A stretch of 64,000 nucleotides of DNA from Spirochaetaceae bacterium (GCA_009780675.1 WQZP01000012.1:3769-67768), one strand, 5' to 3'; positions 4,976-50,459 are shown, counted from the first letter of the stretch. Numbers and translations: made by a program. Notes: generated by a model from the sequence alone, not told the origin.

Positions 4976-4977
4976 TA

Positions 4978-5685: not shown

Positions 5686-5775
5686 TTGCGGTTTTCCCTA
5701 GAATACCTTACTTCATCAACAAGCTGTTGAATATCTTCTTCTTTAATTTTTTATATTGTTTCATTTGTCATATTG

Positions 5776-8420: not shown

Positions 8421-8513
8421 CACCGCCCGCACTCCGCCATTCGGGTAGCTGCGGCACAGGAATCCATGCTCAGCGATTCCGGACCCTACTTAAATTGCAC
8501 GCTCCAGCTACCA
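8421..8513. repeat. GC-rich LRR 3'-UTR element, copy 3
   Basis: accgcccgcactccgccattcgggtagctgcggcacaggaatccatgctcagcgattccgga... Conserved with the copies at 5381 and 7325. Confidence 0.8.
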
Positions 8514-27725: not shown

Positions 27726-27854
27726 AAGAAACTCCTTTTTCTTCTGAAAAAGAAGCCAGAGATAGGCAAGTAATCTAACAAGACAAAAAAATAATAGCCT
27801 ATTCCAACTCAATCCTCGAAGTTGTTATCACCCCAACTAAAGGGGTCTTACTGG

Positions 27855-28040
27855 TTTAAGTATTCTGACTTATGGCTCTGGTATAATTGAATTATACCGC
27901 CGTACCTTTTCCTTCCCAGTTACTCCATTAAAAAACAGAATCACCAGTGGTTGCCAATACATAGTCTCTTTGTATAGGCATAAAAGGTTTGTGGCCAATT
28001 ACAGCAGCGGGACTGCGGAGGAATTTCACCTCTCTTCCAT
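27855..28040 (-). ncRNA. cobalamin (B12) riboswitch
   Basis: Minus strand reads GGTGAAATTCCTCCGCAGTCCCGCTGCTGTAA...CCACTGGTG...ACTGGGAAGG, containing the cobalamin-riboswitch core and B12 box. It is followed by alternative CAACT/AGTTG hairpins and a T-run before the btuB ribosome-binding site. Confidence 0.7.
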
Positions 28041-28151
28041 AAAATCCAGCATCTACACTGTATTATTTTTTTTCTAAATGTTCAAGATTAATAAAAATTG
28101 AGCAGAAGAAACAATATATCGATTTAAGTTACCTTTTTCGTTATCGGAGTG

Positions 28152-28188
28152 TTGACATATAAAAGCATAGTATTATACTTAAAGCATG
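28152..28188 (+). promoter_or_regulatory. sigma70-like promoter (TTGACA-16-TATACT) placing the transcription start at or near the ATG; possible leaderless mRNA
   Basis: TTGACA at 28152-28157 and TATACT at 28174-28179. ATG at 28186 with no Shine-Dalgarno sequence. Confidence 0.35.
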
Positions 28189-29415
28189 ATTATACGAATG
28201 GATACCCTTATCAAGGCTATTGCAACGGCTCTTGACGCAGTAGAACATGAACTTTTAGGGGCCAGCACAAACCACGGCAAACGAATTGCTGTATTGTGCG
28301 CTAGAATGGGAAAGGTTCTGGGGAAAAGCCCGGAAGAGATTGCCAGCATGGCGAATTGCGCGCTGCTTCATGACAACGCGCTTACCGAATTCATTCTTGC
28401 CGAAAAGACAGGCGGACAACACGACCCGGCAATGAAAAAACACTGTGAATATGGCCAACGAAATGTGGATACCCTGGCCTTCAAAACCAACGTGACTGAC
28501 TTGATTCTTTACCACCATGAAAGGGCAGATGGCAAAGGGCCATTTGGAATAAAGGCAGGAGAAGGCCCTGTGGAGGCTGAGCTCATAGCAATAGCTGATT
28601 CAATTGATGTGGGGCATCATTTACAAAGGTTGACTCCTGACAAACTCCCCTTGATCCGGCACACAATCGCCGCAGAGTCCGGAAAAAGATACAGCAAAAC
28701 CGCGGCGGAAGCTATGCTGGAAATCCTTGATTGGCCAACGATTCTTTCACTTAGGGACAACGTCATCCGGGAAACTGCCGAAGCTGCTTTTATTCCCTGG
28801 ATTGCCGATGTGGACGATGAGGCTCTTTTGAACCTGGTAGGCTTTATAACGAGGATCATTGACTATAAATCGGTCTTTACCCAAAAGCATTCAAATCAGA
28901 TTGCCAACAAGGCCTGGTTCATGGGCGGATATTACAAGTATGAAAATGCTGAACGGACACAACTATACCTGGCCGCAGCTCTCCACGACATAGGCAAACT
29001 GGAAGTCCCAACAGCGATTCTGGAAAAACCCGGTAAACTCACGGATGAAGAATTCGTCATCATCAAAGGGCATGCAAGCCAAACTTGGGAACTCCTTAAA
29101 GATATTGATGGGTTCGAAACTGTTTGTAAATGGGCATCCAATCATCATGAAAAACAAAACGGCTTGGGTTATCCCTTTGGGAAAAAGGCCAGCGAACTGG
29201 ATTTTAATTCCAGGCTTATGGCCTGCATTGATATTTACCAGGCTGTAAGCGAGGAACGGCCATACCATCCTGCACGAAACCATAAAGACACCATGCAGAT
29301 ATTATACCAAATCGCAGATACCGGCGATATAGACAAAAAAATTGTTGATGACATATCTGTTGCCCTGTCATCCTTTGATGGCATGGATCTACCAAACCCT
29401 GATCTGTCAAAGTGA
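28186..29415 (+). CDS. tandem HD-GYP domain c-di-GMP phosphodiesterase-like protein
   Basis: C-terminal domain is canonical (ALHDIGKLEVP ... HHEKQNGLGYPFG). N-terminal domain is degenerate (LLHDNALTEF ... YHHERADGKGPFG). Confidence 0.75.
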   Translation: MIIRMDTLIKAIATALDAVEHELLGASTNHGKRIAVLCARMGKVLGKSPEEIASMANCALLHDNALTEFILAEKTGGQHDPAMKKHCEYGQRNVDTLAFKTNVTDLILYHHERADGKGPFGIKAGEGPVEAELIAIADSIDVGHHLQRLTPDKLPLIRHTIAAESGKRYSKTAAEAMLEILDWPTILSLRDNVIRETAEAAFIPWIADVDDEALLNLVGFITRIIDYKSVFTQKHSNQIANKAWFMGGYYKYENAERTQLYLAAALHDIGKLEVPTAILEKPGKLTDEEFVIIKGHASQTWELLKDIDGFETVCKWASNHHEKQNGLGYPFGKKASELDFNSRLMACIDIYQAVSEERPYHPARNHKDTMQILYQIADTGDIDKKIVDDISVALSSFDGMDLPNPDLSK

Positions 29416-29525
29416 ACCTGGCTGGAATATCTCATGCTGTAGATACAGATAGCATCATCACATTAATCCGAGAGCCTTGCCTTCTTAGATATAACACAGC
29501 CGTTGACATATAACACAGTCTCTAC

Positions 29526-30566
29526 TTGACTCTAAAGCTCCGTATGTATGTAATAGAGATAGTGAATAAAAAACAAAAATATAGAGGTTTTTTTCTTCTT
29601 GTTATACTATCTTTTCTTCTCTTTATATTAAATTTGCTTACAGGTTCTGCAGGTATCCCATTTTTAAGCGAAAATATATTTCATACTGATGGCGCAAGAA
29701 CCATAATATGGAAAACAATAATTTTTGAAATAAGATTCCCCAGAGCTGTTTCTGCTTTTCTGGCAGGTGGGGCTCTTGCGCTTGCCGGACTTCTGCTTCA
29801 AACATTTTTCAGAAACCCTTTAGCTGGTCCTGATATTCTGGGAATAGCATCAGGCGCAGGTTTTGGAGCAGCAGTTGTAATTTTAGCCATCCCTTTTTTA
29901 GGCATAGCAGGAATAATATCAACAGCATCTGCTGCTGCAGTTGGAGCTGCTGCAGTAACACTCTTTCTTGTTATGATTGTTAAAAAATCAGGAAGCATAA
30001 CACTTACCCTTATTGCTGGTTTGCTTACAGGTTATTTTATAGCTTCGATCACAGGGATAATGGTAAGGTTTTCTGAAAATCAGGCAGTCAGATCTTTTAT
30101 AAATTGGTCTGCCGGAAGTTTTAAAAATATCTCTCCAGATACTCTCCCTTTTCTTGCTTTAGTAGTTGCTTCTTCGTTTTTAGTTGCTGTTATTATTTCC
30201 AGACATTGCGACCTTTATCTACTTGGAGATGATTATGCATCAAGCATGGGCTTAAATCTTAAATACTTTAGATATTCGGTTATAATCATAACTTCCATAT
30301 TAACAGGAGTAGTAACAGCTTTTTGCGGTCCTATTACTTTTATAGGGATCGCAGCTCCCCATTTTTGCAGATTTTTTCTTAAAACAGATAAACACAATAT
30401 TTTAATACCAGGAACTTTTTTCGCAGGGACAACACTCGCGCTTGCAGCAGATATAATATCATCTCTTCCGGGACATGGTATAACTCTTCCATTAAATTCA
30501 GTAACTGCGATAATAGGAACCCCAATAGTAATAAAAGTGCTATTAAAAGGATATTATGATAAATAA
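29526..30566 (+). CDS. btuC: FecCD/BtuC-family ABC permease
   Basis: About 9 TM segments. FecCD-type signature region GPITFIGIAAPH. Confidence 0.8.
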   Translation: MTLKLRMYVIEIVNKKQKYRGFFLLVILSFLLFILNLLTGSAGIPFLSENIFHTDGARTIIWKTIIFEIRFPRAVSAFLAGGALALAGLLLQTFFRNPLAGPDILGIASGAGFGAAVVILAIPFLGIAGIISTASAAAVGAAAVTLFLVMIVKKSGSITLTLIAGLLTGYFIASITGIMVRFSENQAVRSFINWSAGSFKNISPDTLPFLALVVASSFLVAVIISRHCDLYLLGDDYASSMGLNLKYFRYSVIIITSILTGVVTAFCGPITFIGIAAPHFCRFFLKTDKHNILIPGTFFAGTTLALAADIISSLPGHGITLPLNSVTAIIGTPIVIKVLLKGYYDK

Positions 30567-31332
30567 CGAAAAAATTCTTGAGGCTAAAAACCTTACAACA
30601 GGATATAAAACTAAAAAAATTACAAATGATTTTTCTTTTTCAATAAATACAAATTCAATAACTGTAATAATTGGGCCGAATGGGAGCGGAAAAACAACCC
30701 TGCTTAAAACAATATCAGGAATCATAAAACCAATTTCCGGAGATATTTTTTATTTACTAAACAATACTAATATAGAAGATATGGATGCAATAACATTTGC
30801 AAAAGCAAGATCTGTAGTGCTATCCAAACCTCCGGAAACAGGGATGCTTACTGTTTTTGAAGTTATATCTTTGGGAAGATTTCCCTATACAGGCTGGAAA
30901 GGGAAATTTTCAGACCAGGATTATTTTGAAACTGAAAGAGCTCTGGAAGAAATAGGGATAACTGCTCTTTCAAACAGAATTTTTAGAACATTAAGCGATG
31001 GGGAAAAACAAAAAGTTATGATAGCCAGAGCTCTTGCCCAAAACACCCCACTTATTTTTTTCGATGAACCATCTGCGTTTCTTGACCTCCCGTCAAAAAT
31101 TGAGTTATCAAAACTTATTGCAGATATTTCAAAAAATAAAACAATTATAAGTACAACACATGATATTGATTTCGCGCTTAATTACGCCAATGAGTTGTGG
31201 GTTATTGACAGAGATGGAACTACTCATACAGGAGCGCCAGAAAAACTTTATGGAACCATCGAGAATATTTTTAAAATCATGCCACACAAATTTTTGGAAC
31301 AAAAAATAAAGCTACAGCATACGCTTTGCTAA
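30556..31332 (+). CDS. btuD: ABC transporter ATP-binding protein (BtuD/FepC-like)
   Basis: Walker A GPNGSGKTT. ABC signature LSDGEKQKV. Walker B IFFDEP. Confidence 0.8.
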   Translation: MINNEKILEAKNLTTGYKTKKITNDFSFSINTNSITVIIGPNGSGKTTLLKTISGIIKPISGDIFYLLNNTNIEDMDAITFAKARSVVLSKPPETGMLTVFEVISLGRFPYTGWKGKFSDQDYFETERALEEIGITALSNRIFRTLSDGEKQKVMIARALAQNTPLIFFDEPSAFLDLPSKIELSKLIADISKNKTIISTTHDIDFALNYANELWVIDRDGTTHTGAPEKLYGTIENIFKIMPHKFLEQKIKLQHTLC

Positions 31333-31368
31333 TCTAAAACAAAGAGCCGAGGTGAGGAGAGCCTAAAG

Positions 31369-34245
31369 ATGAAAAGATTTACCATACTGTTGCTGCTTAT
31401 ATTTGTAACTGTTATTGCCGAAGCGCAGCTTTTTCCCCCTTTTCAATCATTCCGCGTTATCAAAACAGAAAAATTTGATATTATCTTCCCTAAAGAATCA
31501 GAAGCATCTGCCCGCCTTTTGGCATCCTATGCAGACAATGTTTATGAAGAGTTAAGTACGCTTTTTGGCATTAGTGTTCCTGGCCGCATTCCTGTAACTT
31601 TTGCTCCACATACTGATATGTTTAATGGTTATTACAATCCCATATCACGTCCTCATATTGTGCTTTTTGATACAGCTATGAATATAGAGTGGACCACTTT
31701 TGAAGATAATCTTAAAGGGCTTTTTATTCATGAGTTAACCCATGCAATTACTTTAAACACAAGAAGCCCTTTTTACCGCTTTCTGCACAGATTTTTTGGC
31801 AATTGGGCAACTCCCGCATTTTGGACCGCGCCGGCATTTATGCTAGAGGGCGCTCCAATCAGCATGGAAAGCCTTGGGGGTTTTGGCAGAGCAAATGATC
31901 CATTTGCCAGGCATTATCTAAGGCAGGCTCTCCACGAAGGGAAGTTTCATACACCCTTTCAGGCTTCGGGTGTATACGATTTTCCAGGGCAACGATATTT
32001 GTTTTACGAGTACGGAGGTTTTTTTTCCGCATGGCTACAGCAACAATTCGGTATGGAAAAATATGCTGAACTTTGGCAAGCCATGGGTAAGAGCGGACAA
32101 TTTTCCATTTTCGCATACCGGTCAGGGTTTTATAATATTTTCAGAAGAGTGTACAACATGGATTTTATCTATGCCTGGAATACTTTCAGGGATTCACTTG
32201 CCCTGGATAACATTGAAGAAAATCAGAATGAAATCCTTCCAGGACAATACCGTTTCTTTTCCGAAAACAGAAATTCTTTTCCTGCTCTGGCAGCCAGTAA
32301 AAATGAAGTCTTTATTCTTGACAGAACAGGAAAAATCCATGTTTATAATTCACAGACAGGAAATACCCGCACATTTAACTCCGGGCTTTTTTTAGTTTAT
32401 GACCTTGATGTTTCTGCCTGCGGTACAACTCTTCTCGTGTCCGGGTATCAGGCTATAACAGGCGATCGGTTCAGAGCAGTTGTCATAGAACACAGGACAG
32501 ATTCCGGGCGCAGAACAGGCAGGGTTTTTCATGGGCTTTACAGAGCCAGATATTTCAGAGACGGCGTTATTGGAATTCGTACCGAACTCCACAACAATAA
32601 AATTGTATACGAAGATTTTAATGGTAACAGAGAAATTCTTTTCCAGGGAAATCAGAGATTGATGTTTTCAGGCCCGCAGGCTGTGGATAATGATAGGATT
32701 GCATTTATAGCAGCCCGTAATGGCGCGCGGGAACTTTTGCTTTACAATTATGTTTCTGGAGAACTTTTTCGCATTGAAAATTCCACAGACAATAATGACT
32801 ATTGGCGATTTATGCGAAACTTAAATGTCTCGGAAGGAAGGCTTCTTTTTAGCCATAATGCGAACGACCGCATGTACAAATTTGCTTCTATTGATCTGGA
32901 AAATATGCAGGCAATTTTTAGCACCCGTGATTTTTCCGGCGGTGTTTTTAATCCAGTTTCTGTTAATGGAAATATTTATTACCGCGCAAACTTTTTTTCC
33001 GGAGACAACATTTTACGTTTTCCGGAAACTATAACATCTCTTTCAGGAGAGCAAACCAATATAAATTTCGCAGCGCCTGCTGAAGATTACAGATTGGCTG
33101 CGCAGAGGAGGGGCAACACACAGGAAGCGCTGACTGTACAACCACATGATAACAACCTTCCTCCCTTTGAGTCCCGGCCATATTTTACCATCAGGTATAT
33201 GAATCCCTTTGATTTTTGGCTACCATTACCATTAATTAGAGTGGATACTGATTTTAATTTCTCTTTGGATGGCGGGGGCATTCTTTCAGTAATAATGGAT
33301 CCTACAGACAGGCATTTAATAATTGCCATGGCGTATGCAGATACAAAATATCAAATGGCAAATGTAGAACTTTTTACATGGCAAAATACCGTTGCTGGAT
33401 TCCCTATAGCCCTGGAATTTTCAGATACAATATTAACAAATTCCAGAGATGATCTTTATCGAAATACCAGAGTAAGTTTAATAGCCAGTTTTAGCCAAAT
33501 TCCAGGGCGTTGGCGATATGGATTCTCTTTTGGCGGAGGATATTACCGGATTGCCGAAGATGACGGCAGAGCAAGCGCTTATGATTGGGAAAAAACAGAA
33601 AGCGGCTTTTTATATTCTGCAACTCTTTCATTTTCAACCCTGACACGCCGTCAGCATGAATTGTTTGGAACTGGTATGTCTCTTGGGTTCAGGGGGATCA
33701 GTATTGTAGAAGATTTTCACCCCCGCCTTGAGGGCAGATTTCGGGCAAGCACAGAAACAAGATTCCCCTTGGGCCTTGTTCTTTACGGCGTTTATGATGA
33801 ACGCGGAATGAATCTTCATGGATCATCACGAACTTATGGAGGTTCATTGTTTCGTGATTCTGCATCAGTGGAATATACAATCCATAGAGGACTCAATAAC
33901 CTTTTATGGATTGCCGGAGCAGAATTGTCGTTAGGGCTTTTTTCTTTTGAAATTCAAAGAAATCTTTCCCATGTTTATTTTAACAGATTTTTCTGCACCC
34001 TTGCAGTAAGAAATGTTTTGTATAACAGTGACGGACATTTCCTGGCAGAAGGAATTGAAATGGGGGATTTTCACTTGGCGCAGTCGCTGGTGCTTAGTCT
34101 TGGATTAATATCCTCGGTTATTCCACTTAAACAAGTACCGCTTTTTCTGGAACCCAGAATTTGGGGTGCCTGGAAATTCTCCAACACCATTACCGGAAAA
34201 GGCGATATCTGGCAAATTGGGGCAGGCTTTAATTTTCAGTATTAA
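31369..34245 (+). CDS. large secreted protein: HExxH metalloprotease-like N-terminal region, beta-propeller-like middle, beta-barrel-like C-terminus
   Basis: Signal peptide. FIHELTHAITLN (HExxH motif). Repeated TolB-like blades. C-terminus ...GAGFNFQY. Confidence 0.4.
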   Translation: MKRFTILLLLIFVTVIAEAQLFPPFQSFRVIKTEKFDIIFPKESEASARLLASYADNVYEELSTLFGISVPGRIPVTFAPHTDMFNGYYNPISRPHIVLFDTAMNIEWTTFEDNLKGLFIHELTHAITLNTRSPFYRFLHRFFGNWATPAFWTAPAFMLEGAPISMESLGGFGRANDPFARHYLRQALHEGKFHTPFQASGVYDFPGQRYLFYEYGGFFSAWLQQQFGMEKYAELWQAMGKSGQFSIFAYRSGFYNIFRRVYNMDFIYAWNTFRDSLALDNIEENQNEILPGQYRFFSENRNSFPALAASKNEVFILDRTGKIHVYNSQTGNTRTFNSGLFLVYDLDVSACGTTLLVSGYQAITGDRFRAVVIEHRTDSGRRTGRVFHGLYRARYFRDGVIGIRTELHNNKIVYEDFNGNREILFQGNQRLMFSGPQAVDNDRIAFIAARNGARELLLYNYVSGELFRIENSTDNNDYWRFMRNLNVSEGRLLFSHNANDRMYKFASIDLENMQAIFSTRDFSGGVFNPVSVNGNIYYRANFFSGDNILRFPETITSLSGEQTNINFAAPAEDYRLAAQRRGNTQEALTVQPHDNNLPPFESRPYFTIRYMNPFDFWLPLPLIRVDTDFNFSLDGGGILSVIMDPTDRHLIIAMAYADTKYQMANVELFTWQNTVAGFPIALEFSDTILTNSRDDLYRNTRVSLIASFSQIPGRWRYGFSFGGGYYRIAEDDGRASAYDWEKTESGFLYSATLSFSTLTRRQHELFGTGMSLGFRGISIVEDFHPRLEGRFRASTETRFPLGLVLYGVYDERGMNLHGSSRTYGGSLFRDSASVEYTIHRGLNNLLWIAGAELSLGLFSFEIQRNLSHVYFNRFFCTLAVRNVLYNSDGHFLAEGIEMGDFHLAQSLVLSLGLISSVIPLKQVPLFLEPRIWGAWKFSNTITGKGDIWQIGAGFNFQY

Positions 34246-35393
34246 GGAAGGACAGGTATATGCCTGAAAAAATATTTTTTTCTGCCAGTAGAAAAGTGGT
34301 CATGATGGATAATATTTATAAGGTCAGACAATATCCTGTCCGGATGCGCAGTGCCTTCATCCCAAAAAGGATTCCCATCTCCTCTATCCCTAAGGTCATT
34401 ATTATAGACCTGCCTGTTTTGGAAAGCCCTAAAAAGGGAATATCTTCGGTCTCTGTTTACAATATCTCCAAGAACCCTTATCCCCGAAGTATTCAAGAGC
34501 CAAATATCTGCGTTACCAGCCGCAACATAAACTTGCTTGAAGTCAAAAAACAGGGAGCCCTGCCTTCTTACGCTTGCCCACGGATAGGCTGCCCCGGCAT
34601 GCTCCAGCATAATGGCAAAGTAACTATTGCCGGAAGGGGTAACCCAGCTATCTCCATGCATCATATTTAAAAACACAACAGGTCTCTTGCCATTTAAAGG
34701 AACTTTTTCTTTTAGCGCGTTATACCTCAAAACCGTATCATTTAAAATACGCTTCCCCTCATACTCCATATCAAGAAAAAGAGAAAGAAAAACAAGCCAC
34801 TCCAACCTTCCCAAAGGGTGATTCTCAAGCCACCCCGCAGTTACTGCAACAGGAAACCCATGCCGCAATAATAACCCGGTAGAGTCATAATCTCCGCCTG
34901 TCCATGGAGTAATTACAAGCTCCGGGCTTATGGAAAAAATCATTTCAATATCAATATCGCGCCCCTCGCCCACTTGCGCCACAGAGCCTTTTCCTACACG
35001 CTCCTTAACTTCCATATTAGAAGTGTTTCTGGAAAAATCTATTGCTTTTAACTTATCAAGAGAATCCAGAGATTCAAGAAAAAATATATTTTCCGAAGAA
35101 AGAGATATTATTCTTTGCACAGGGATTTTTACATACTGAATTATCCTGTTTCTATTAGCCCTTCTACTATCGTTTATAGAAGGTTTTTCATCACGGTAAA
35201 GATACCAGATATATTCAAAACCACCCACATTTACATAAACTTCTATGTGATTTTCATAATTTCTATATGAAAAATTTTGCGCATAAAGGTTTTTAGTAGT
35301 TGTTCTTGGACTGATATTGCCTTGTTTGCAACCTATACACAAAAAAAGCAAAAATATACTAACAATTGTTAAAATTTTTAATTTTTTATCCAT
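34242..35393 (-). CDS. periplasmic binding lipoprotein (BtuF/class III substrate-binding-like)
   Basis: Lipobox LCIGC. Peripla_BP_2-like core GLLLRHGFPVAVTAGWLENHP. Convergent with the btuCD operon. Confidence 0.6.
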   Translation of the reverse strand: MDKKLKILTIVSIFLLFLCIGCKQGNISPRTTTKNLYAQNFSYRNYENHIEVYVNVGGFEYIWYLYRDEKPSINDSRRANRNRIIQYVKIPVQRIISLSSENIFFLESLDSLDKLKAIDFSRNTSNMEVKERVGKGSVAQVGEGRDIDIEMIFSISPELVITPWTGGDYDSTGLLLRHGFPVAVTAGWLENHPLGRLEWLVFLSLFLDMEYEGKRILNDTVLRYNALKEKVPLNGKRPVVFLNMMHGDSWVTPSGNSYFAIMLEHAGAAYPWASVRRQGSLFFDFKQVYVAAGNADIWLLNTSGIRVLGDIVNRDRRYSLFRAFQNRQVYNNDLRDRGDGNPFWDEGTAHPDRILSDLINIIHHDHFSTGRKKYFFRHIPVLP

Positions 35394-36716: not shown

Positions 36717-37772
36717 TTGAAATCTTTTTCCGACAAAATATCCATAAGAAAACCAGATGATATGCATCTACACTTAAGGCAAGGCGAAATTCTTAAAGTA
36801 TGCGCGCCTGAATCTGCCAAATGGTTTCAGAGAGCCATGATAATGCCCAATACAATTCCTCCAATAATCAACAGTGAAAGATTGATCAGCTACAGAAAAG
36901 AGATTGAAGAAGCAGTTTTCTATAGAAATAACAGAGAATCAAATATTCCAAAAGAAAACTTTACTCCGCTTATGAGTTTTAAACTTTATCCTGGCATGAA
37001 AGAGGAAGAGGTTATAAAACTATCTAAGGCAGGAGCAGTTGCAGGAAAACTATATCCGGAAGGGAGCACAACCAATTCAGAAGATGGTGTAAAATCATGG
37101 AAGCAGATAACAGAAGCGTTATCCGCCATGAGCAAACTTGGCATTATCCTTGCAATACATGGAGAAAAGCCAGATTCTTTTGTTCTTGACAGAGAAAAAG
37201 ATTATCTTCCTGAACTTTTTCAAATAATCGAACATTATCCTGATCTCAAAATAGTACTTGAGCATGTTTCAAGTGTTGAAGGGGTAAATGCTGTTATAAA
37301 TGGGCCTGTTAACCTTGGAGGTACGATTACTATCCACCACCTTCTTATTACCCTTGACGACCTTCTTGGCGGAGGTATTAATCCACATAATTTTTGCAAG
37401 CCTGTAGTTAAAACACCCAAAGACAGGGAAGCAATCCAAAATGCAGCGCTATCGGGAAACAGAAAATTCTTTTTTGGGTCAGACAGCGCTCCCCATCCTG
37501 AATCATTAAAAATAAAAACAGGGGGAAATGCAGGTATATTTTCAGCTCCTGTTGCGTTCCCGTTATTAGTATCTTTTTTTGAAAAAAATGGCTCAAAAGA
37601 ACTGCTTGAAAATTTCACATCAAGGTATGGCGCGGAATTTTACAACCTTCCATTAAATAGCTCTTCTATTACTCTTGAAAGAAAAGAGAGTAAAGTGCCA
37701 GAAAGATTTTCGGATATTGTCCCTTTTATGGCAGGCGCTACAATTGAATGGGATATTTCCACATCTGAGTAA
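36717..37772 (+). CDS. pyrC: dihydroorotase (homodimeric type)
   Basis: IRKPDDMHLHLRQGE...MPNTIPP mirrors E. coli PyrC (IRRPDDWHLHLRDG...MPNLAPP). About 350 aa. Confidence 0.75.
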   Translation: MKSFSDKISIRKPDDMHLHLRQGEILKVCAPESAKWFQRAMIMPNTIPPIINSERLISYRKEIEEAVFYRNNRESNIPKENFTPLMSFKLYPGMKEEEVIKLSKAGAVAGKLYPEGSTTNSEDGVKSWKQITEALSAMSKLGIILAIHGEKPDSFVLDREKDYLPELFQIIEHYPDLKIVLEHVSSVEGVNAVINGPVNLGGTITIHHLLITLDDLLGGGINPHNFCKPVVKTPKDREAIQNAALSGNRKFFFGSDSAPHPESLKIKTGGNAGIFSAPVAFPLLVSFFEKNGSKELLENFTSRYGAEFYNLPLNSSSITLERKESKVPERFSDIVPFMAGATIEWDISTSE

Positions 37773-37783
37773 CGCGCAATCAA

Positions 37784-38395
37784 ATGGTTGAAAAATATTT
37801 TCTGGAATATTGCAAAATACGCGATAATATTGATTTAAAAATATCAGAAATTTTATCTTTTTATAAAGGGGATATCCTTTGCAAAAAAGGGTGTTCTGGT
37901 TGTTGTATGGCAATAACGCTTTTTCCTGTTGAATTTTTCGCAATAAAGCAGGAAACTGACAAGGGCTCATTAAAAACTTTGTTGTCACCTTCGTTTACTC
38001 TGGATTCTAAAAATACAAAACAAAACCAGGATTGCATTTTTCTTGAAAAATCAATATGCACGATATATGAATCCAGACCCATAATATGCAGGACACAGGG
38101 GCTGCCGTTATTCTACTTCTCAGATACGCTTGAAGATTACACAATATCTTTCTGCGATAAAAATTTTACATCCTGTCGGGAAGATTTTGAATTTAACACA
38201 GAATATTCAATTGACCTTGATAAGTTGAATTCATCGCTGTATAAGTTAAACAAGGAATTTATGAAAGAAATCAATCTTGAAAACAATATGGATAAAAGAA
38301 TTCAAATATCGCTTTTACTTTCCAACAATAACACATCCGCGTCCGCGTCAGACAAGATTGATTATAAAAGTCCAAGTTTATATTTTAATGAATAA
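37784..38395 (+). CDS. YkgJ-family Cys-cluster (CxxCxxCC) protein
   Basis: CKKGCSGCCMA motif and a second Cys cluster ICRTQG. Confidence 0.5.
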   Translation: MVEKYFLEYCKIRDNIDLKISEILSFYKGDILCKKGCSGCCMAITLFPVEFFAIKQETDKGSLKTLLSPSFTLDSKNTKQNQDCIFLEKSICTIYESRPIICRTQGLPLFYFSDTLEDYTISFCDKNFTSCREDFEFNTEYSIDLDKLNSSLYKLNKEFMKEINLENNMDKRIQISLLLSNNNTSASASDKIDYKSPSLYFNE

Positions 38396-39264
38396 AGTGT
38401 ATTTTTCATAAGCATTGCAATAGTCATTGGGCCTACTCCGCCAGGCACTGGTGTAATAAACCCTGCAACTTTTGATGCTTCTTCAAAATCTACATCTCCC
38501 TTAAGAATCGCAACTGGCTTGCCTGTTTTTTCGCTTATTTTTTCCCCTACCCTGTTTACCCCTACATCTATTATGCAAGCCCCTTTTTTTATCCATTCTG
38601 TTTTTAAAACCCCAGGAGACCCTGCTGCTACAATAATTATATCTGCATTTTTACAGTAATACTCCATATCTTTTGTGCCTGTATGAAGAATAGTAACAGT
38701 TGCATTTACAGATTTTTTTATAAGCATATTTGCCAGAGGTTTTCCTACAATATTCGATCTTCCTATTATTACAGTATCAGTGCCATTTGTTTTTATGTTT
38801 GCTGCTTTTAAAAGCTCCAGAATACCAGCAGGTGTGCAGGGATAAAATCTTGCATCATCTTCACCAAGAACAATTTTACCAATATTGACAGGATGAAAGC
38901 AGTCAACATCTTTATCAGGATTTATGGCATAGATAACGCTTTTTTCGTTAATATGTTTTGGAATGGGAAGCTGAATAAGAATCCCGTGTATTGAATCATC
39001 ATTATTATATTTTTCTATTACAGAAAGCAACTCCTGTTGCGAAACATCTTCTTTAAGATTTTCCTGAACTTCTTTAAAACCAAGAGAATTAGCGGTTTTT
39101 ATTTTAAGATTTACATAGGAAACAGAAGCAGGATTACTGCCAACAAGAATTGTCACAAGGCCAGGAACTTTATTGTATTTTTTTTCTATTTCTATTGCTT
39201 CTGCCTTGATTTCCGCAAGGATTTTTTCTCTTACCTCATGGCCATTTATTATAGTTGCCGGCAT
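38362..39264 (-). CDS. folD: bifunctional methylene-THF dehydrogenase/methenyl-THF cyclohydrolase
   Basis: Full-length FolD-like sequence (YVNLKIKTANSLGF.., GRSNIVGKPLANML, PGGVGPMTIAMLM). Confidence 0.85.
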   Translation of the reverse strand: MPATIINGHEVREKILAEIKAEAIEIEKKYNKVPGLVTILVGSNPASVSYVNLKIKTANSLGFKEVQENLKEDVSQQELLSVIEKYNNDDSIHGILIQLPIPKHINEKSVIYAINPDKDVDCFHPVNIGKIVLGEDDARFYPCTPAGILELLKAANIKTNGTDTVIIGRSNIVGKPLANMLIKKSVNATVTILHTGTKDMEYYCKNADIIIVAAGSPGVLKTEWIKKGACIIDVGVNRVGEKISEKTGKPVAILKGDVDFEEASKVAGFITPVPGGVGPMTIAMLMKNTLYSLKYKLGLL

Positions 39265-39297
39265 AAAAACTCCTTCTTTTGATCCATTTTATCAGTA

Positions 39298-40152
39298 TCA
39301 GATTATTCCATTAAGCTCATCAATAATTTCTTTTTTCATTGTAAACGAATGTTTTTCTTCAGGGAAATTCCCTTCTTTTACATCTTTTACATATTCTTCA
39401 ATAGCTTTTTCTATAATATCATAAACATTTGCATAAACTTTCACAAATTTTGGAGTAAACCTTTTGTAGAGCCCCACCATATCATGAAAAACAAGGACCT
39501 GCCCATCACAGGATATTCCGCCACCAATACCTATCGTCGGTATTGAAAGTTTTTTCGTTATAATAGCTGCAAGAGCAGCAGGCACTGCTTCAACCACAAC
39601 CATAAATGCTCCGGCTTCCTGAACAGCTATTGCATCATCTATCAGTTTTTTTGCTGCATCCAATGTTTTGCCCTGCACTTTTAGCCCCCCAAGCAAAGCA
39701 GATGTTTGGGGAGTAAGCCCGATATGAGCGCAAACAGGAATTCCTGCTTTACAGATAGAGTTGATTATTCCTGCGTACTCTGCACCACCTTCGATTTTAA
39801 CAGAATCAGCAAGACCTTTTTGATAAAAAGCTCCGGCATTTTCTATAGCTTTTTCTGTAGAAACACTAAAACTCAAAAAAGGCATATCTGCAGCAACATG
39901 GATATTTGGAGACCCTCTCCTGACAGCCTTCAAGTGTATCATCATATCTTCCATTGTCACAGGAATAGTGCTGTCATACCCAAGTTCCACCATTCCCAGC
40001 GAATCCCCCACAAGAATTATATCCACCCCTGCTTCCTGCGCAGCCATTGCCTGATAATATGTGTAAGCAGTAACCATTGCTATTTTTTTCCCTTCCTGCT
40101 TCATCTCCAGGTAGTTATCTGGCAGAAGCTTTTTTTTATCAATACCTTTCAC
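39298..40152 (-). CDS. panB: 3-methyl-2-oxobutanoate hydroxymethyltransferase
   Basis: KKIAMVTAYTYYQAMAAQEAGVDIILVGDSLGMV is the PanB signature. Confidence 0.85.
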   Translation of the reverse strand: MKGIDKKKLLPDNYLEMKQEGKKIAMVTAYTYYQAMAAQEAGVDIILVGDSLGMVELGYDSTIPVTMEDMMIHLKAVRRGSPNIHVAADMPFLSFSVSTEKAIENAGAFYQKGLADSVKIEGGAEYAGIINSICKAGIPVCAHIGLTPQTSALLGGLKVQGKTLDAAKKLIDDAIAVQEAGAFMVVVEAVPAALAAIITKKLSIPTIGIGGGISCDGQVLVFHDMVGLYKRFTPKFVKVYANVYDIIEKAIEEYVKDVKEGNFPEEKHSFTMKKEIIDELNGII

Positions 40153-40179
40153 GTCCCAATCCTCTCAAATATATACTTG

Positions 40180-41445
40180 CTATTTTTTGTCAATTTCTTT
40201 TGCAAGAACACTTATAATTTTTTTTGCTACATTTTCCTTCAGATCCATTGCTATTTTTTCTGTATATCCGTTATTTGTAATAACAAACATTTCATTGGTA
40301 TCAGACTCAAAGCCCACCCCTTTTTTGGAAACATCATTTACCGCAACCATATCTGCTGCTGCTTTTTCCATTCTCTTCTTTGCATCTTCCAATAAACCTG
40401 CTTCCGGCAAATCATGCTGAGCCCGAAACACAAGAAGAAAAATCAAAGGGTATTTTGCCTTAATGCTGTCAATGATTTTAGGAGTTGGCTTTAAACGTAT
40501 AACAAGAGAATCTTTTTCATGCGTAGATATTTTTTCTGTTGATTTTTCTTCTGCCTGCCAGTCGCCAACTGCTGCTGCTGCTGCAAATATATCATAGTGG
40601 CTGCTCTCCAGTTCTTTGTGAACAGCGTCATACATTTCCTGACCAGTATCTGTATATATAACTTTTATTTTTTTCGATGGAGTTACAGAGATTTTCCCTG
40701 CAATCAAAGTAACATCTGCTCCAGCTTCTGCTGCTTTTTCCGCAAGCGCCACACCCATTTTGCCGGATGAATTATTCGTTACAACTCTTATGGGGTCAAT
40801 ATACTCAACTGTTCTCCCTGCAGTAACAATCATTTTTTTCCCTTCAAGCAGCTTTTTCCCGGAAGCAGGAGAAAGAAGTTCCAGAACCTTTTCGTATATC
40901 TCATTGTTTTCGGGTATTTTTGCTTTCCCTTCTTCTACGCGGGGCTGCATAACAGTAATACCATAAGAAATAAGTTTATCGATATTCTCCTTTACAAAAG
41001 GGTGTCTATACATGGGCTCGTGCATTGCAGGAACAACAAGAAGGGGAATTTTTTCTCCAATCGCAGTTGTTGCAAAAGTTGTAACAGAAGTATCATCTAC
41101 TCCTGTTGCGATTTTGCCTATAGTATTTGCTGTACACGGCGCAATAATTATAAGATCTGCTTTTGTTTTTGTATTTCCCGCAAGCGCCACATGTTCGACA
41201 TTGCCAGTTAATTCTATAATGGGATAACGTCCGGTTGCCCAGTGCATAAGGTCAGGATGGATAATGTTGCACGCTGCTTTACTCATTACCGGAAAAACAT
41301 CTGCGCCGTGCCGCATAAGAAGCCTTGCAAGGTCAGAAGATTTTACAGCAGCAACACTTCCGGTAATACATAGTACAATTTTTTTTTCACCCAGCTTGCT
41401 GTCTAAACTGTTTTTAATATCAAATGAGGGATGTTTTTCTTCCAT
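40180..41445 (-). CDS. coaBC: bifunctional phosphopantothenoylcysteine decarboxylase/synthetase
   Basis: N-terminal flavoprotein domain (KKIVLCITGSVAAVK). C-terminal CoaB domain (VTAGRTVEYIDPIRVVTNNSSGKMG). Confidence 0.85.
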   Translation of the reverse strand: MEEKHPSFDIKNSLDSKLGEKKIVLCITGSVAAVKSSDLARLLMRHGADVFPVMSKAACNIIHPDLMHWATGRYPIIELTGNVEHVALAGNTKTKADLIIIAPCTANTIGKIATGVDDTSVTTFATTAIGEKIPLLVVPAMHEPMYRHPFVKENIDKLISYGITVMQPRVEEGKAKIPENNEIYEKVLELLSPASGKKLLEGKKMIVTAGRTVEYIDPIRVVTNNSSGKMGVALAEKAAEAGADVTLIAGKISVTPSKKIKVIYTDTGQEMYDAVHKELESSHYDIFAAAAAVGDWQAEEKSTEKISTHEKDSLVIRLKPTPKIIDSIKAKYPLIFLLVFRAQHDLPEAGLLEDAKKRMEKAAADMVAVNDVSKKGVGFESDTNEMFVITNNGYTEKIAMDLKENVAKKIISVLAKEIDKK

Positions 41446-41448
41446 AAA

Positions 41449-42246
41449 TCAAACTCCGCTTTCTGTTGAGAGTTTTAAAAGCCTCTCTGACATAAACACA
41501 AGAGAATCTTTTAACACTTTTTTATTATCATAAGAATCATATATTGATTTTAGTTCTTCTTTTTTTTTCTTTTTATAACTTTTAATTTTCGCTGTAAGAA
41601 GAGGAAGGACTCTTGTAATATTATCGATTATTGAAACATGGGCTTTCCTGGGAGTTCTGGAAAGAGGATTAAGGTCAACAGTAACTACTTTTTTCCCAAT
41701 TTTTACAAGAGCTTCTGTTCTGTCTCCATCTTCAAGAGGGACAAAAACCATATCTGCTTTTAAAATTCCATTGGGGTCAACGATTCTTCTGTCACTGGCA
41801 AGCTCTTTGATTACACTGCTGTTTCCGCTTACGCCAAGCACTGTTTTGGCTCCTGCTTCTTTAAGCACTTTAAGTATTGCCTCTTCTCTTCCCGGGGTCC
41901 TATAAAAAAGATTTATCTCAAGAGGCGCGCCAGATTCTTTGGAAAGTTTCACAAGGTCTTTTGCTGCAATTTGTGCGATATTGCCGTTAACAGAAATAAC
42001 AGGATATTCTGCGAGAAGAAAAGCGCAGGCAGCAGCCTCTATTGCGGCAAGTGAAAACTTTTCTGTTTTTTCCCCTATAATATAATCAAAAGCTTCGCCC
42101 CTTCCCTGCGCAATAAGCCCTGCAGGCGCGACAACTTTGGTCTCACAACCTTTGATAATGCTTTCCCGTATCATCATTGCCGTGTAACGGGGGTGGTCTT
42201 TGGGGATATTGGGCCCGGTTGTTGTCTTATTAATCTTCGCTGACAA
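41449..42246 (-). CDS. archaeal-type 4-phosphopantoate:beta-alanine ligase (phosphopantothenate synthetase)-like
   Basis: About 265 aa. HPRYTAMMIRESIIKG...AQGRGEAFDY. Operon context with a pantoate-kinase-like gene, panB, coaBC and panE. Confidence 0.45.
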   Translation of the reverse strand: MSAKINKTTTGPNIPKDHPRYTAMMIRESIIKGCETKVVAPAGLIAQGRGEAFDYIIGEKTEKFSLAAIEAAACAFLLAEYPVISVNGNIAQIAAKDLVKLSKESGAPLEINLFYRTPGREEAILKVLKEAGAKTVLGVSGNSSVIKELASDRRIVDPNGILKADMVFVPLEDGDRTEALVKIGKKVVTVDLNPLSRTPRKAHVSIIDNITRVLPLLTAKIKSYKKKKKEELKSIYDSYDNKKVLKDSLVFMSERLLKLSTESGV

Positions 42247-43162
42247 TGTTAACCCCTCCTCTCGCGATATTGGAAAAAAACAGAAAAGGTTTTCTGTCTG
42301 ATTTTATTTCAGAAATATTTTTTTCCGCGATTTTCCTTATTCTTTCAATATCAGTTTTAGGGACAATTGAAAATGTCCCTTCGCCAAACATAAGCATACT
42401 GCTGTTTATCCCTTTTTTATCAAACCCATCCATAACCATTCTGACGCTTTGAGGAATCATTTCAGTACTTTCCGCAAACTCACGGGAATATTTTATAAAG
42501 TTTTCAAAGCTGGGTTCTTTTTTTATAAGCGAATGATATTTTTTGCCACTGATGGTTATTTTTTCACGAAGTAATGGGTCTGATAACGCTTCTTTTGTTG
42601 ATAGCGGGCCATATACAGCAAACATTGCATACAGTCCATCAGGATATGGTATTGAAATAGTTGCCCCAATTCCAGGCGCGCCTGGTTTTATCAATATTTT
42701 TACCCCTCCAAGAGTCTCCCCCATAACAGTACCAAGCCCTGTTTTGCAGATCACCTCTGCGCAATGGGCAACCTGCGAAGCTTGAAGCGCGCTTATAGGG
42801 TCGCCATACAGTCTGTTAAGCGCAAACACAAGACTTAGAGCTCCTGACCCGCTTGATCCAAAGCCTGACCCCTGAGGTGTTTCTATTTTATGCTCTATTT
42901 TGAGGGATTCTGGAATAATTCCTGTTTTTTCAAAAAAAAGCTCTATTATTTTTCTGCTGACAGGCGCTGTTTTTTTTATGGAATTTATTGCAATTAGATG
43001 GTCTTTTGAACTCTTATTCCTGCCTACAGTTGTAGATGTCCCTTTTATTATTGAAAAACCAGAACCCAGGGACCCGCAGTACAATGGGTCTGTTTCCAAA
43101 TCTTTCATATAAAAGAGTCCTGTAATATGTCCCGGAGAAAAAGCTGTTACCCTTTTCATCAA
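42230..43162 (-). CDS. GHMP-kinase family protein, archaeal-type pantoate kinase-like
   Basis: AFSPGHITGLF N-terminus. PQGSGFGSSGSGALS GHMP phosphate-binding loop. About 310 aa. Confidence 0.5.
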   Translation of the reverse strand: MMKRVTAFSPGHITGLFYMKDLETDPLYCGSLGSGFSIIKGTSTTVGRNKSSKDHLIAINSIKKTAPVSRKIIELFFEKTGIIPESLKIEHKIETPQGSGFGSSGSGALSLVFALNRLYGDPISALQASQVAHCAEVICKTGLGTVMGETLGGVKILIKPGAPGIGATISIPYPDGLYAMFAVYGPLSTKEALSDPLLREKITISGKKYHSLIKKEPSFENFIKYSREFAESTEMIPQSVRMVMDGFDKKGINSSMLMFGEGTFSIVPKTDIERIRKIAEKNISEIKSDRKPFLFFSNIARGGVNIVSED

Positions 43163-43245
43163 GTAGAGTATCTATTAAATCTGCCATTTATTCAACATAA
43201 AATGATTTAGGAGACAATTTCTTTTAAATCTGATACATTATAAAA

Positions 43246-44208
43246 ATGAATATTGCAATAATTGGAGCAGGGGCAACTGGTTCGCTTTTTGGAAGTTATC
43301 TTAGCCATGCTGGATATAATGTTATAATTACAAATTCCAGTGAAACAAAAACAAATGTTATTGCAGATAAAGGGATAAAGGTTTTATCCCCATCTGGAGA
43401 GGAAATCCTGCACACTTTTCTTTACGAAGCGCTCCCTGTCTCAAAACTGGGATCAAGCGAAAAGTTTAAGAATTGCCAGTACTATATATTTTGCGTAAAA
43501 TCATTTTCAACTGCCAGCGCAGCTGAATCTATCTATAAATTTGTCAAACCAGACTCTATTGTTGTAACACTCCAGAATGGAGCTGGAAATATCGAAAATC
43601 TCTCTGCTTTTTTTAAATTGGACAATATTGCAGCAGGCACAACAACAGAAGGGGCTACGCTACTTGAACCAGGAATTGTTATACATGGGGGAAAAGGCAA
43701 AACAACTATTGGGATGGTTGGGAATAATAAAGAAAAAAGCCAACTTGAGCCTTTAATTACAGCTTTTGAAAAAGCAGGGTTTAATACTTCCTATACAGAT
43801 GATCCAAAAAAAATAATATGGGAAAAACTTGCGATAAATGCGGCCATAAATCCAATAACAGCTATTTTAAAAGCAAGTAACGGAATTATTGTTGAAAATG
43901 AATACTTAAAAAATCTTGTAAAAATAATTACAGAAGAGGTTTGCCTGACTGCATCTGCATCCGCGCCAGCAGGGAGTGATAACATAAAACTTGATCCAGA
44001 TGAAACATATAACAAAGTTCTTGAAGTCGCAAAAAACACAAAAGCAAACAAATCTTCGATGCTCCAGGATATATTGGCTGGCAAGAAAACAGAAATTGAA
44101 AATATTTCAGGATTTATTTCCAAAACCGCAGAAGATAATGGGATAAGCGCAAAAGGGAATCATGCTCTCTTTCTTCTTGTAAAGGCCCTTGAAAATAAAA
44201 CTATATAA
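43246..44208 (+). CDS. panE: 2-dehydropantoate 2-reductase
   Basis: MNIAIIGAGATGSLFG Rossmann motif. ApbA/PanE-like length and C-terminal domain. Confidence 0.7.
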   Translation: MNIAIIGAGATGSLFGSYLSHAGYNVIITNSSETKTNVIADKGIKVLSPSGEEILHTFLYEALPVSKLGSSEKFKNCQYYIFCVKSFSTASAAESIYKFVKPDSIVVTLQNGAGNIENLSAFFKLDNIAAGTTTEGATLLEPGIVIHGGKGKTTIGMVGNNKEKSQLEPLITAFEKAGFNTSYTDDPKKIIWEKLAINAAINPITAILKASNGIIVENEYLKNLVKIITEEVCLTASASAPAGSDNIKLDPDETYNKVLEVAKNTKANKSSMLQDILAGKKTEIENISGFISKTAEDNGISAKGNHALFLLVKALENKTI

Positions 44209-44251
44209 AAAGCCCCTTTAAACATAATGTTTTTATTGGTATTATTATTCC

Positions 44252-44815
44252 ATGAACAAAGAAAAAGTAATCAATCTTGTGAAAGAACTTATAATTGAAC
44301 TGGGAGAAGACCCTCAAAGAGAAGGGCTGTTAAAAACCCCTGAAAGATTTGCAGATGCTTTCTCTTTTTTCACAAAAGGTTATAAAGAAAATATTGAAGA
44401 TGTTGTTAACGGAGCAATATTCGCATCAGAAGCCAACAACATGATAATCCTTAGAGATATAGAAGTATATAGCTTATGCGAACACCACCTTCTCCCTTTT
44501 TACGGGAAATGCCACATAGGGTACATAGCAGGTAAACAGGTAATAGGATTAAGCAAAGTTGCGCGGATCGTTGAAATGTACGCAAGAAGATTTCAAATCC
44601 AGGAAAGACTTACATCACAAATCGCACAAGCCATAAAAAGTTGCGTAAAAGCAGAAGGTGTTGGCGTTGTTATGGAATGTAGACATCTATGTATGATGAT
44701 GAGGGGTGTAGAAAAACAAAACTCTTTAATGACAACATCTTCTGTACTTGGCTGTTTTCACAACCTTGCAACCAGAGAAGAATTTATGAGCCTTATAGGC
44801 CGGCAACCTTCATAA
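44252..44815 (+). CDS. folE: GTP cyclohydrolase I
   Basis: [20 protein letters not shown] is the FolE active-site region. Confidence 0.85.
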
Positions 44816-44835
44816 AATTGGTATACTTGCCAACT

Positions 44836-46425
44836 TCAATTCGCAAATATAATTTTCATTAAATTCAAAAACACATATATTTTTTTATAAATTGATTTAA
44901 TATCTTCGACTATATCGCCTTCACCATTTTCATAAGCTGATTTTACAACTGTAGGGTTTATAATTATATTCATAGGAGGCTTTTCAACAAATTCCGGAAG
45001 AATATCTGCCAATGCTTGCCCAATTTTTGTCAGGTTTTTATAAATATCCTGCGCGCTAAGCACAAAAGCACTGTTTACATCATGAAGAAGTTTTTTTATT
45101 TCTACTTTACATTTTGGGTCAGAAGCCATTCTTTTCATATATGAATTGATTTTACCGCCAACATCTCCATCTGATCCCAACGAGTTATCAAGTTGTATGA
45201 TTTTATCTGACAAAGAGACCAAAGCCTCAAGCGTATCGGAAATTTCCTTACTGGATGCATTTGTCTTCCATTCAGCCTTAACAATAAGGTAATTAACAAT
45301 CTTCATAACGTCTTTTTTTACATAATCAAGCATAAATGTTTTTACATAATTAATAGCTTCAACATGAAGATAGCCGCCAAGAAGCTTTTGCTTAAAAATA
45401 CCATTATTTGCTTCTGTATAATTTTTCATTCTGTTTGCAAGCGCTGTCTCTCCAAAGACCTGTTTAAGCACTTCATCTTTTTTTGAGTTTTTCTTTTCCA
45501 TAGCTACTTTTTGAATAACCATTTCAACAGAAGTTTTAAGCTTTGAAATATACTCATCAAAAATACTTTCTTTGGGCTCTTCAATGCGCACAACATAGGA
45601 AGGATTTTTTAAAACCAGTTTTATCATGTATTTAAAAACTTCTGAATTAGCAACATTATTCACATATCTCATAAGTTTAGACCAGTCGTCCCTCGATAAA
45701 ACATCTTGTTGTTTAAAAGCTTTTAAAACATCAAATACCCCATTCCATGAACTATAACTTAGCAACAAGGGAAACATTGAAGCCATTTCAATCAAATCAT
45801 CAGTTATATATTCACAATTAATAGATTTAAATAATGGCTTATATTTAAAATCCATTTCCGGCAACAAAGAATCAAATTTTTTCAAAAGAAAATAATAATC
45901 AAATTTGAGCAATCTTACAAATATAAGGTACTGTTTATAAATTCCATTCGCATTTGCCATTTGCTCATTACTAATTGACTGTATAAGGGCTGCCAGTTCT
46001 TTTTTAATATTTTCAAGCTCTTCGCTACTCTCACTAAGCCGCTTTTCTAAATTTTCCTTCTGCAACTGCCCTATAAGCTCTTTTTGTTGGTCAGATAAAA
46101 CACTATCTATAAAAAGAGACTTTAGTGATGGTATATTTTCCTGTCCAGCCAGGAATTTTGCAGGAACAGCAGTTACGGCATAAATTTGATGATAGAATTT
46201 CGCAAGAGCAGGAAGCGCTTCTTCTGTTTTAACATTTATAAATTTATATCTCTGTTTTTTTAATATTTTGCCAATATCTTTTAAAAGTTGCTTCTTTTTT
46301 CCCTCAGGACTATTATCTTTGAATAAATTTAGAATTCTTTGAACTATTGATAAATTTTCTTCTGAAATTTCTTTATCAGAATCAATTTGTCTTGGATTTT
46401 TATTATTCAACTTTTTTTCAGCCAT
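44836..46425 (-). CDS. hypothetical cytoplasmic all-alpha protein (529 aa)
   Basis: Long ORF. No TM segment and no recognisable motif. Confidence 0.35.
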   Translation of the reverse strand: MAEKKLNNKNPRQIDSDKEISEENLSIVQRILNLFKDNSPEGKKKQLLKDIGKILKKQRYKFINVKTEEALPALAKFYHQIYAVTAVPAKFLAGQENIPSLKSLFIDSVLSDQQKELIGQLQKENLEKRLSESSEELENIKKELAALIQSISNEQMANANGIYKQYLIFVRLLKFDYYFLLKKFDSLLPEMDFKYKPLFKSINCEYITDDLIEMASMFPLLLSYSSWNGVFDVLKAFKQQDVLSRDDWSKLMRYVNNVANSEVFKYMIKLVLKNPSYVVRIEEPKESIFDEYISKLKTSVEMVIQKVAMEKKNSKKDEVLKQVFGETALANRMKNYTEANNGIFKQKLLGGYLHVEAINYVKTFMLDYVKKDVMKIVNYLIVKAEWKTNASSKEISDTLEALVSLSDKIIQLDNSLGSDGDVGGKINSYMKRMASDPKCKVEIKKLLHDVNSAFVLSAQDIYKNLTKIGQALADILPEFVEKPPMNIIINPTVVKSAYENGEGDIVEDIKSIYKKIYVFLNLMKIIFAN

Positions 46426-50057: not shown

Positions 50058-50459
50058 TCACCAAAGTAGTTTTAAACCATCTTTTTTGTATTGTTCAAAT
50101 AATTCATCTTTGCTTATCATTACCATATTTTTAGTTATTGCCTGCCATATTAACATTCTATCAAATGGATCTTTATGATCTTTTTTTAGCGGCAATTCAT
50201 GGAATGAGATAGCTTCATTTTCTTGTATATTTATTACATTAAAATCCATATTTTTTGCAAGTTGAGGAAAAAATTTTATATCCACATTTTTAAATGAAAA
50301 TTTCTTCATTCTTGTTTTTAATGATATTTCCCAAAATGAAACAGTACTAATGCAAATTTCATTGTTTTTATTGAAAATTATGTCTTTACACTTTTTACTT
50401 AATCTATCTGTTTCTAAAATAGTCCAAATAAATGTGTGGGTATCCAGAAGATAAATCAT
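50058..50459 (-). CDS. vapC: PIN-domain toxin (VapC-like)
   Basis: MIYLLDTHTFIW...ISTVSFWEI is a PIN N-terminus with the acidic residue. Overlaps the antitoxin gene by 4 nt. Confidence 0.75.
   Translation of the reverse strand: MIYLLDTHTFIWTILETDRLSKKCKDIIFNKNNEICISTVSFWEISLKTRMKKFSFKNVDIKFFPQLAKNMDFNVINIQENEAISFHELPLKKDHKDPFDRMLIWQAITKNMVMISKDELFEQYKKDGLKLLW

Follow-up and report, generated by a model that had tools for sequence, protein, structure and literature searches.

A 64,000-nucleotide stretch of DNA from a Spirochaetaceae bacterium (GCA_009780675.1, WQZP01000012.1:3769-67768; the whole of it is called 'the window' below) carries five close-packed genes on its minus strand, which in transcription order encode a GHMP kinase resembling pantoate kinase (PoK), a PF02006 ligase assigned to phosphopantothenate synthetase (PPS), CoaBC, PanB and FolD, with panE and folE lying divergently on the plus strand. 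This chromosomal spirochaete operon, together with the divergent panE-folE pair, very probably makes 4'-phosphopantetheine in the archaeal order of reactions. Open reading frames (ORFs) were called on the window and named from Pfam and NCBIfam profile scans, which supported all seven genes (Table 1). The seven belong to the families named, the run is tightly packed (the kinase and ligase genes overlap by 17 nt, and the remaining minus-strand gaps measure 3, 27 and 33 nt) and conserved in relatives, and the contig is bacterial; the genes from PoK to folD are probably co-transcribed. A preliminary description of this DNA had placed coaBC, the ligase, the kinase, panB and panE within 38362-44208, and Pfam and NCBIfam agree on all five at their coordinates; the range holds the pantothenate genes as described, but its part from 38362 to 39264 is folD, which had gone unmentioned and is not a pantothenate gene, and folE falls a little beyond its end.

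In the proposed route, PanB would convert 2-oxoisovalerate to ketopantoate with methylene-tetrahydrofolate (methylene-THF), PanE would reduce ketopantoate to pantoate, the GHMP kinase would phosphorylate pantoate to 4-phosphopantoate, the PF02006 ligase would join 4-phosphopantoate and beta-alanine to 4'-phosphopantothenate, and CoaBC would add cysteine and then decarboxylate the product. Free pantothenate would never be an intermediate, and PanC and a pantothenate kinase would therefore not be needed. PanB, PanE, PoK, PPS and CoaBC indeed form a coherent predicted route from 2-oxoisovalerate to 4'-phosphopantetheine, as had been proposed. The FolD substrate 5,10-methylene-THF is the one-carbon donor for PanB. 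A Pfam scan of the 54 non-overlapping ORFs of at least 90 aa in the window gave no PanC or CoaA, in line with the preliminary description, and no CoaX, type II pantothenate kinase, PanD or pyridoxal phosphate (PLP)-type aspartate decarboxylase. In the proposed reading, the archaeal-type route would be the only one in the cell.

Family assignments of the kinase and the ligase

The top NCBIfam models for the kinase were both pantoate kinase models (NF041122, 144.7 bits; NF040725, 128.2 bits), and the other GHMP models scored 27.9 (mevalonate kinase), 25.7 (homoserine kinase) and 21.3 bits (archaeal shikimate kinase). In a search of the PDB, the kinase aligned over 275 residues with PoK of T. kodakarensis (6jbc, 136 bits, E 1.7e-38), the next match being a homoserine kinase at 22 bits. 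The predicted fold agreed: an AlphaFold2 model of the kinase (pLDDT 90.8) found 6jbc as its best Foldseek match (E 7e-27, TM 0.85/0.89, root-mean-square deviation 2.6 A), followed by mevalonate diphosphate decarboxylase (E 3e-18, TM about 0.71). The preference for PoK over mevalonate or homoserine kinase expressed in the preliminary description was thus borne out, by 145 and 128 bits against at most 28 and by 6jbc as the closest fold. The GHMP phosphate-binding motif PQGSGFGSSGSGA is retained, as are H10, S28, S104, H131, E134 and T186 (T. kodakarensis numbering). The protein is therefore, by best match in every method, a predicted pantoate kinase (EC 2.7.1.169), and its specificity would be for pantoate. 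The NCBI label for the exact protein reads only 'GHMP kinase', an under-annotation that is here corrected to PoK-type.

The ligase scored above the cutoffs of both PF02006 (230.2 bits, cutoff 26.4) and the PPS subfamily model NF010324 (340.1 bits, cutoff 227), and residues 13-262 aligned with the solved PPS structures of T. kodakarensis (3wdk, 244 bits) and T. onnurineus (4mb0, 236 bits). Out of 68 columns that are invariant among 10 archaeal PPS sequences, 63 are identical in the window protein, the five differences being S>A, H>Q, A>Q, L>I and A>P. Judged by sequence, the 265-aa protein is clearly a phosphopantothenate synthetase (EC 6.3.2.36), whose acyl substrate would be 4-phosphopantoate; its earlier placement in this family, and not in an unrelated one, stands on the NF010324 score and on the end-to-end alignment with solved PPS. 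The Pfam and NCBI family names still read 'phosphopantothenate/pantothenate synthetase'.

The likely start of the kinase is an ATG at 43159, which gives 309 aa and matches the calls in public assemblies. The PPS start codon is a TTG inside the 3' end of the PoK gene, with AGGAGG upstream (a ribosome-binding site read in the sequence), and coaBC starts 3 nt past the PPS stop codon. The spacer between the PoK operon and panE is presumed to be their shared promoter region; a consensus scan for promoters and terminators over 37500-45500 gave 21 promoter-like sites relative to 24.4 expected from shuffled sequence, that is, no excess. A scan of the whole window with Rfam placed no RNA element near the operon.

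Table 1. Genes and spacer of the predicted phosphopantothenate cluster, with coordinates in the window
Feature	Position	Strand	Length	Support and remarks
Pantoate kinase (PoK)-like GHMP kinase	42230-43162	-	310 aa	NCBIfam, PDB, predicted fold
Predicted phosphopantothenate synthetase (PPS; 4-phosphopantoate--beta-alanine ligase)	41449-42246	-	265 aa	PF02006, NF010324
CoaBC, bifunctional phosphopantothenoylcysteine synthetase/decarboxylase	40180-41445	-	421 aa	TIGR00521 359 bits (cutoff 219.7); PF02441 + PF04127
PanB, ketopantoate hydroxymethyltransferase	39298-40152	-	284 aa	PF02548 361 bits; NF001452 360 bits (cutoff 272)
FolD, methylene-THF dehydrogenase/cyclohydrolase	38362-39264	-		PF00763 + PF02882; NF010765 466 bits; final gene of the run
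Intergenic spacer between PoK operon and panE, AT-rich	43163-43245		83 bp	Presumed shared promoter region
PanE, ketopantoate reductase	43246-44208	+	320 aa	TIGR00745 248 bits (cutoff 141); PF02558 + PF08546
FolE, GTP cyclohydrolase I, folate biosynthesis	44252-44815	+		PF01227 237 bits; TIGR00063 236 bits; co-directional with panE

Relatives in Spirochaetota and in archaea

A genome scan with the PoK alignment returned 56 loci, comprising 52 Spirochaetota species representatives, three Bathyarchaeota and one Nitrososphaera; this count is a lower bound and biased, the scan patterns having been derived from the window's own clade. The Spirochaetota holders come from termite gut, horse faeces, sediments and salt-lake soil. 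PPS lies directly downstream of PoK in 49 of the 56 loci (45 of the 52 in Spirochaetota), the exceptions being seven rumen loci (L015-L021). Layouts were judged by tblastn with the window proteins on those spirochaete loci that were long enough, and fell into three types. The first is that of the window, with folE and panE divergent from PoK-PPS-coaBC-panB-folD, and it persists in relatives whose protein identity is as low as 57-65%, among them three complete spirochaete chromosomes of 3.8-3.9 Mb (OY759746.1, OY764342.2 and OY764868.1). Within it, folE synteny is kept in L002-L013 wherever the contig extends far enough, and L014 has the five-gene run with no tblastn match to folE or panE; folD follows the genes for coenzyme A (CoA) synthesis throughout L003-L021, rumen loci included. 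In L003-L013, PanE is 39-40% identical to that of the window, relative to 63-68% for PoK, PPS, CoaBC, PanB and FolD, so PanE is diverging far more rapidly than the proteins encoded around it.

The second layout, found in environmental Spirochaetales and Sediminispirochaeta, is most often PoK-PPS-panB-X-coaBC, where X in L026 (12598-13935) is an MfnA-type PLP decarboxylase (TIGR03812, 410 bits, cutoff 299). A PF00282 decarboxylase directly follows PPS in two further loci (L032:11680-12855 and L052:11705-12880). In archaea, beta-alanine for CoA comes from the MfnA/GAD-like family, and the three spirochaete proteins are, on family membership, candidate archaeal-type aspartate decarboxylases that could play this part. 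The third layout is PoK-coaBC-folD, in the seven rumen lineages (for example, L019:10001-13093), whose kinase may show that PoK is not strictly tied to PPS and could serve as a pantothenate kinase. A search at the 85% conservation level found no residues that separate the rumen kinases from those linked to PPS. The neighbours of the rumen loci include ybeY, a CBS/CorC gene and a class I tRNA synthetase.

One close relative, on a 4692-bp ENA contig (P0258), carries a 724-aa in-frame PPS-CoaBC fusion that is 88% and 81% identical to the PPS and CoaBC of the window (40180-42246), respectively. As only 3 nt separate the two genes in the window, one lost stop codon suffices for such a fusion, which could be real or, being seen on one contig only, a sequencing error.

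The archaeal background of one Bathyarchaeota locus (L053) was verified by its genes for aCPSF1, an archaeal proteasome beta subunit and FrhB. Its order is PoK-PPS-(hexulose-6-phosphate synthase)-panE-coaBC, and that of the other two Bathyarchaeota loci and of the Nitrososphaera locus is PoK-PPS-coaBC and PoK-PPS-panB-coaBC, respectively. Identity of the window PPS is 53-57% to the PPS of the four archaeal loci and 47-61% to that of environmental spirochaetes. In neighbour-joining bootstrap trees of PPS and of PoK plus PPS, the window's clade was recovered at 95%, most deep backbone nodes stayed below 40%, and a clean split of Archaea from Spirochaetota appeared in 0 of 100 bootstraps. Two Bathyarchaeota loci grouped with three Zodletone 'Spirochaetales' loci (77% bootstrap); the latter were checked for mis-binning and are bacterial (class A penicillin-binding protein, PriA, TRAP transporter).

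On these sequence comparisons, more than one exchange between the domains is favoured. The horizontal acquisition proposed in the preliminary description gains from the gene content of the relatives: exchange with archaea is favoured because they have an MfnA-type decarboxylase and the PoK-PPS order of the archaeal loci. The neighbour-joining trees of PPS and of PoK plus PPS do not fix the number or direction of transfers. Almost all archaea have PoK and PPS (PMC6650551), and transfer from archaea to bacteria is therefore the more economical direction, though not proven. The exchange with archaea was probably ancient and not recent. The same 2019 mBio paper counts Bathyarchaeota with the archaea that have neither PoK nor PPS, contrary to which three Bathyarchaeota metagenome-assembled genomes (L047, L053 and L059) have the pair; as two of these loci group with spirochaete copies, transfer from bacteria back to archaea is a possibility.

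Points against the route and alternative readings

Several observations weigh against the proposed route. A source of beta-alanine was not found in the 64-kb window by the Pfam scan of its 54 ORFs. The kinase scores well under the equivalog cutoffs of its two best models (144.7 against 500 bits for NF041122, and 128.2 against 380 for NF040725), which are narrow, lineage-specific models named Thermoplasmata-type and methanogen-type, and the ligase falls narrowly under the equivalog NF041123 (290.4 bits, cutoff 300), a model built for archaeal sequences. The seven rumen loci have neither PPS nor panB within 10 kb on either side of the kinase gene. Two residues reportedly important for function in T. 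kodakarensis PoK are also replaced in the kinase. In place of Asp143 there is Thr in the window protein and in all 121 homologues, archaeal ones included, with Glu at position 147 in 111 of them, and in place of Arg155 there is Leu, with Lys at 153, as in 37 of the 121 homologues, all from the host-associated subclade; K/R153 with L/S155 replaces E153/R155 in the subclade that includes the window. In T. kodakarensis PoK, according to what Kita et al. are said to have described in 2020, Ser104, Glu134 and Asp143 are catalytic, and Ser28, His131, Arg155 and Thr186 bind pantoate. From the alignment, the changes at 143 and 155 look like a relocated charged residue.

The route could be real and yet redundant, if canonical panC and coaX or coaA were present elsewhere in the genome and the archaeal-type branch were accessory or conditional. 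The window is a 64-kb part of a roughly 3-4 Mb genome, and to that extent the idea has room. It is nevertheless unlikely, as no panB, panE or coaBC was seen other than those of the operon, which is conserved across lineages at 57-65% identity; conservation of an operon across such diverged lineages argues for sustained selection.

The same enzymes might instead work in the bacterial order, the PF02006 protein as a pantothenate synthetase and the GHMP kinase as a pantothenate kinase, in which case pantothenate would be an intermediate that could also be salvaged. The wording of the Pfam and NCBI family names would suit this, and the kinase and coaBC of the rumen relatives L015-L021, with no PPS or panB nearby, fit a pantothenate-salvaging kinase, the more so as the K/R153-L155 variant is common to the window kinase and the rumen lineage. 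The rumen and the PPS-linked kinases, however, differ at no family-conserved column, and the window PPS shares about 55% identity with archaeal PPS and retains 63 of the 68 invariant columns. Archaeal PPS reportedly takes 4-phosphopantoate and not pantoate, and PoK is said to prefer pantoate strongly (work attributed to Yokooji et al. in 2009 and Ishibashi et al. in 2012), which speaks against the bacterial order. This order of reactions is accordingly regarded as quite improbable. An artefact, that is, an archaeal contig mis-binned or chimerically joined to a bacterial assembly, might be suspected from the identity to archaeal proteins (53-57% for PPS, 36-44% for the kinase), but is effectively refuted by the FlaA, TonB/ExbBD, BspA-type and OmpA genes flanking both sides of the cluster within the window, the recovery of the exact proteins in independent assemblies, the syntenic cluster within three complete spirochaete chromosomes, and a GC content of the cluster that is not atypical.

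The archaeal order via 4-phosphopantoate thus remains the preferred reading of the operon. Within it, a gain of pantothenate kinase activity by the K/R153-Leu155 kinase of the host-associated subclade is a speculative proposal, to which a low probability is given. If it were true, the rumen kinase would be the pantothenate kinase of its cell and an unrecognised, GHMP-fold type of that enzyme, which is similarly doubtful; the window operon would then, with as little likelihood, be an intermediate state that combines de novo synthesis via 4-phosphopantoate with salvage of pantothenate.

Genomic setting and comparison with known systems

The source spirochaete is probably from a termite gut, the closest genome representatives being termite-gut bins at 85-90% identity. 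The content of the window is bacterial and spirochaetal, with two FlaA genes (59982-61447), TonB/ExbB/ExbD, a TonB-dependent receptor, BspA-type leucine-rich-repeat proteins and OmpA, and the GC content of the cluster (0.36-0.39) is the same as that of its surroundings. A tRNA search of the window found none. The single Rfam match in the whole window was a cobalamin riboswitch (27860-28038, minus strand, 46 bits), which lies upstream of genes for the TonB-dependent receptor (25704-27812) and TonB (25088-25723); a FecCD permease and an ABC ATPase (29526-31332) are encoded close by, as is a periplasmic binding protein (34242-35393), and 25088-35393 is a probable vitamin B12 uptake region. Between 16000 and 24500 the GC content is 0.45-0.48, relative to 0.32-0.41 in most of the window, and this part, which may be an acquired island, encodes an ArsP-type permease, a DUF362 protein, a 783-aa SLT-domain protein and a trio resembling anaerobic glycerol-3-phosphate dehydrogenase (DAO+BFD, Pyr_redox_2, DUF1667). 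The BspA-type proteins number three (2430-3848, 7407-8315 and 8486-9517), and genes resembling toxin-antitoxin systems (4274-7058 and 50058-50459) encode a PHD_like antitoxin, a Gp49/HTH pair, a nucleotidyltransferase and a PIN-domain protein. Two large ORFs, 31369-34245 (958 aa) and 12385-14466 (693 aa), had no Pfam match at E <= 1e-5.

The PoK/PPS route has been taken as a marker splitting Archaea from Bacteria, and the 2019 mBio paper describes both enzymes as unique to archaea (PMC6650551). Archaeal-type PoK and PPS with bacterial-type downstream genes have been published for Entoporibacteria (Thomes and Lescure 2020; PMC7883664), where they were read as a mosaic pathway due to horizontal transfer or ancient coexistence. 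Cloacimonadota, too, are among the bacterial holders of PF02006 proteins. The preliminary description had called the route unusual in bacteria; in view of the Entoporibacteria report and of a kinase present in at least 52 Spirochaetota representatives the wording is too strong. A literature search found no publication tying PoK/PPS to spirochaetes among the results listed, and two recent papers on spirochaete genomics say nothing of pantothenate. Many PPS copies and some kinases are already annotated by name in databases. The pathway is thus a known one in a new and broad bacterial lineage, widespread in Spirochaetota. The 52 representatives suggest a second and much broader bacterial home for it, spanning termite and horse gut symbionts as well as free-living forms of sediments. 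Their clusters often include a candidate archaeal-type aspartate decarboxylase, and they make a good case for operon-level exchange between Archaea and Bacteria. No new chemistry is revealed. Annotation pipelines that look for panC with coaA or coaX would wrongly call these spirochaetes auxotrophic for pantothenate or CoA.

Compared with T. kodakarensis PoK (TK2141; 6jbc) and PPS (TK1686; 3wdk), the window pair belongs to the same two families and has the same predicted chemistry. The host, however, is bacterial, and the genes overlap and sit in an operon with coaBC, panB and folD; the kinase has Thr143/Glu147 and Lys153/Leu155 where that of T. kodakarensis has Asp143/Gln147 and Glu153/Arg155. 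The Entoporibacteria are sponge symbionts, whereas the window comes from a different phylum and habitat (Spirochaetota). The window has a classical PanE, while Poribacteria are without this reductase (KPR) and were inferred to use IlvC; its genes form one operon, and its relatives, unlike Entoporibacteria, add an MfnA-type decarboxylase.

The Bathyarchaeota and Nitrososphaera clusters (L047, L053, L059 and L060) share the PoK-PPS order of the window, with coaBC downstream, and at 36-57% identity their proteins resemble the window proteins as closely as the copies from environmental spirochaetes do. They differ in an archaeal background (verified for L053) and in having no linkage to folD or folE, and two of them (L053 and L047) have a hexulose-6-phosphate synthase/RraA gene beside the cluster. 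The canonical bacterial route, with PanC (PF02569) and CoaA, CoaX or type II pantothenate kinase, performs the same net conversion of pantoate, beta-alanine and ATP to 4'-phosphopantothenate and likewise feeds CoaBC. Its enzymes, whose genes are not in the window, are unrelated in fold and take the two steps in the opposite order, with pantothenate as a free intermediate and pantothenate kinase as the regulatory point.

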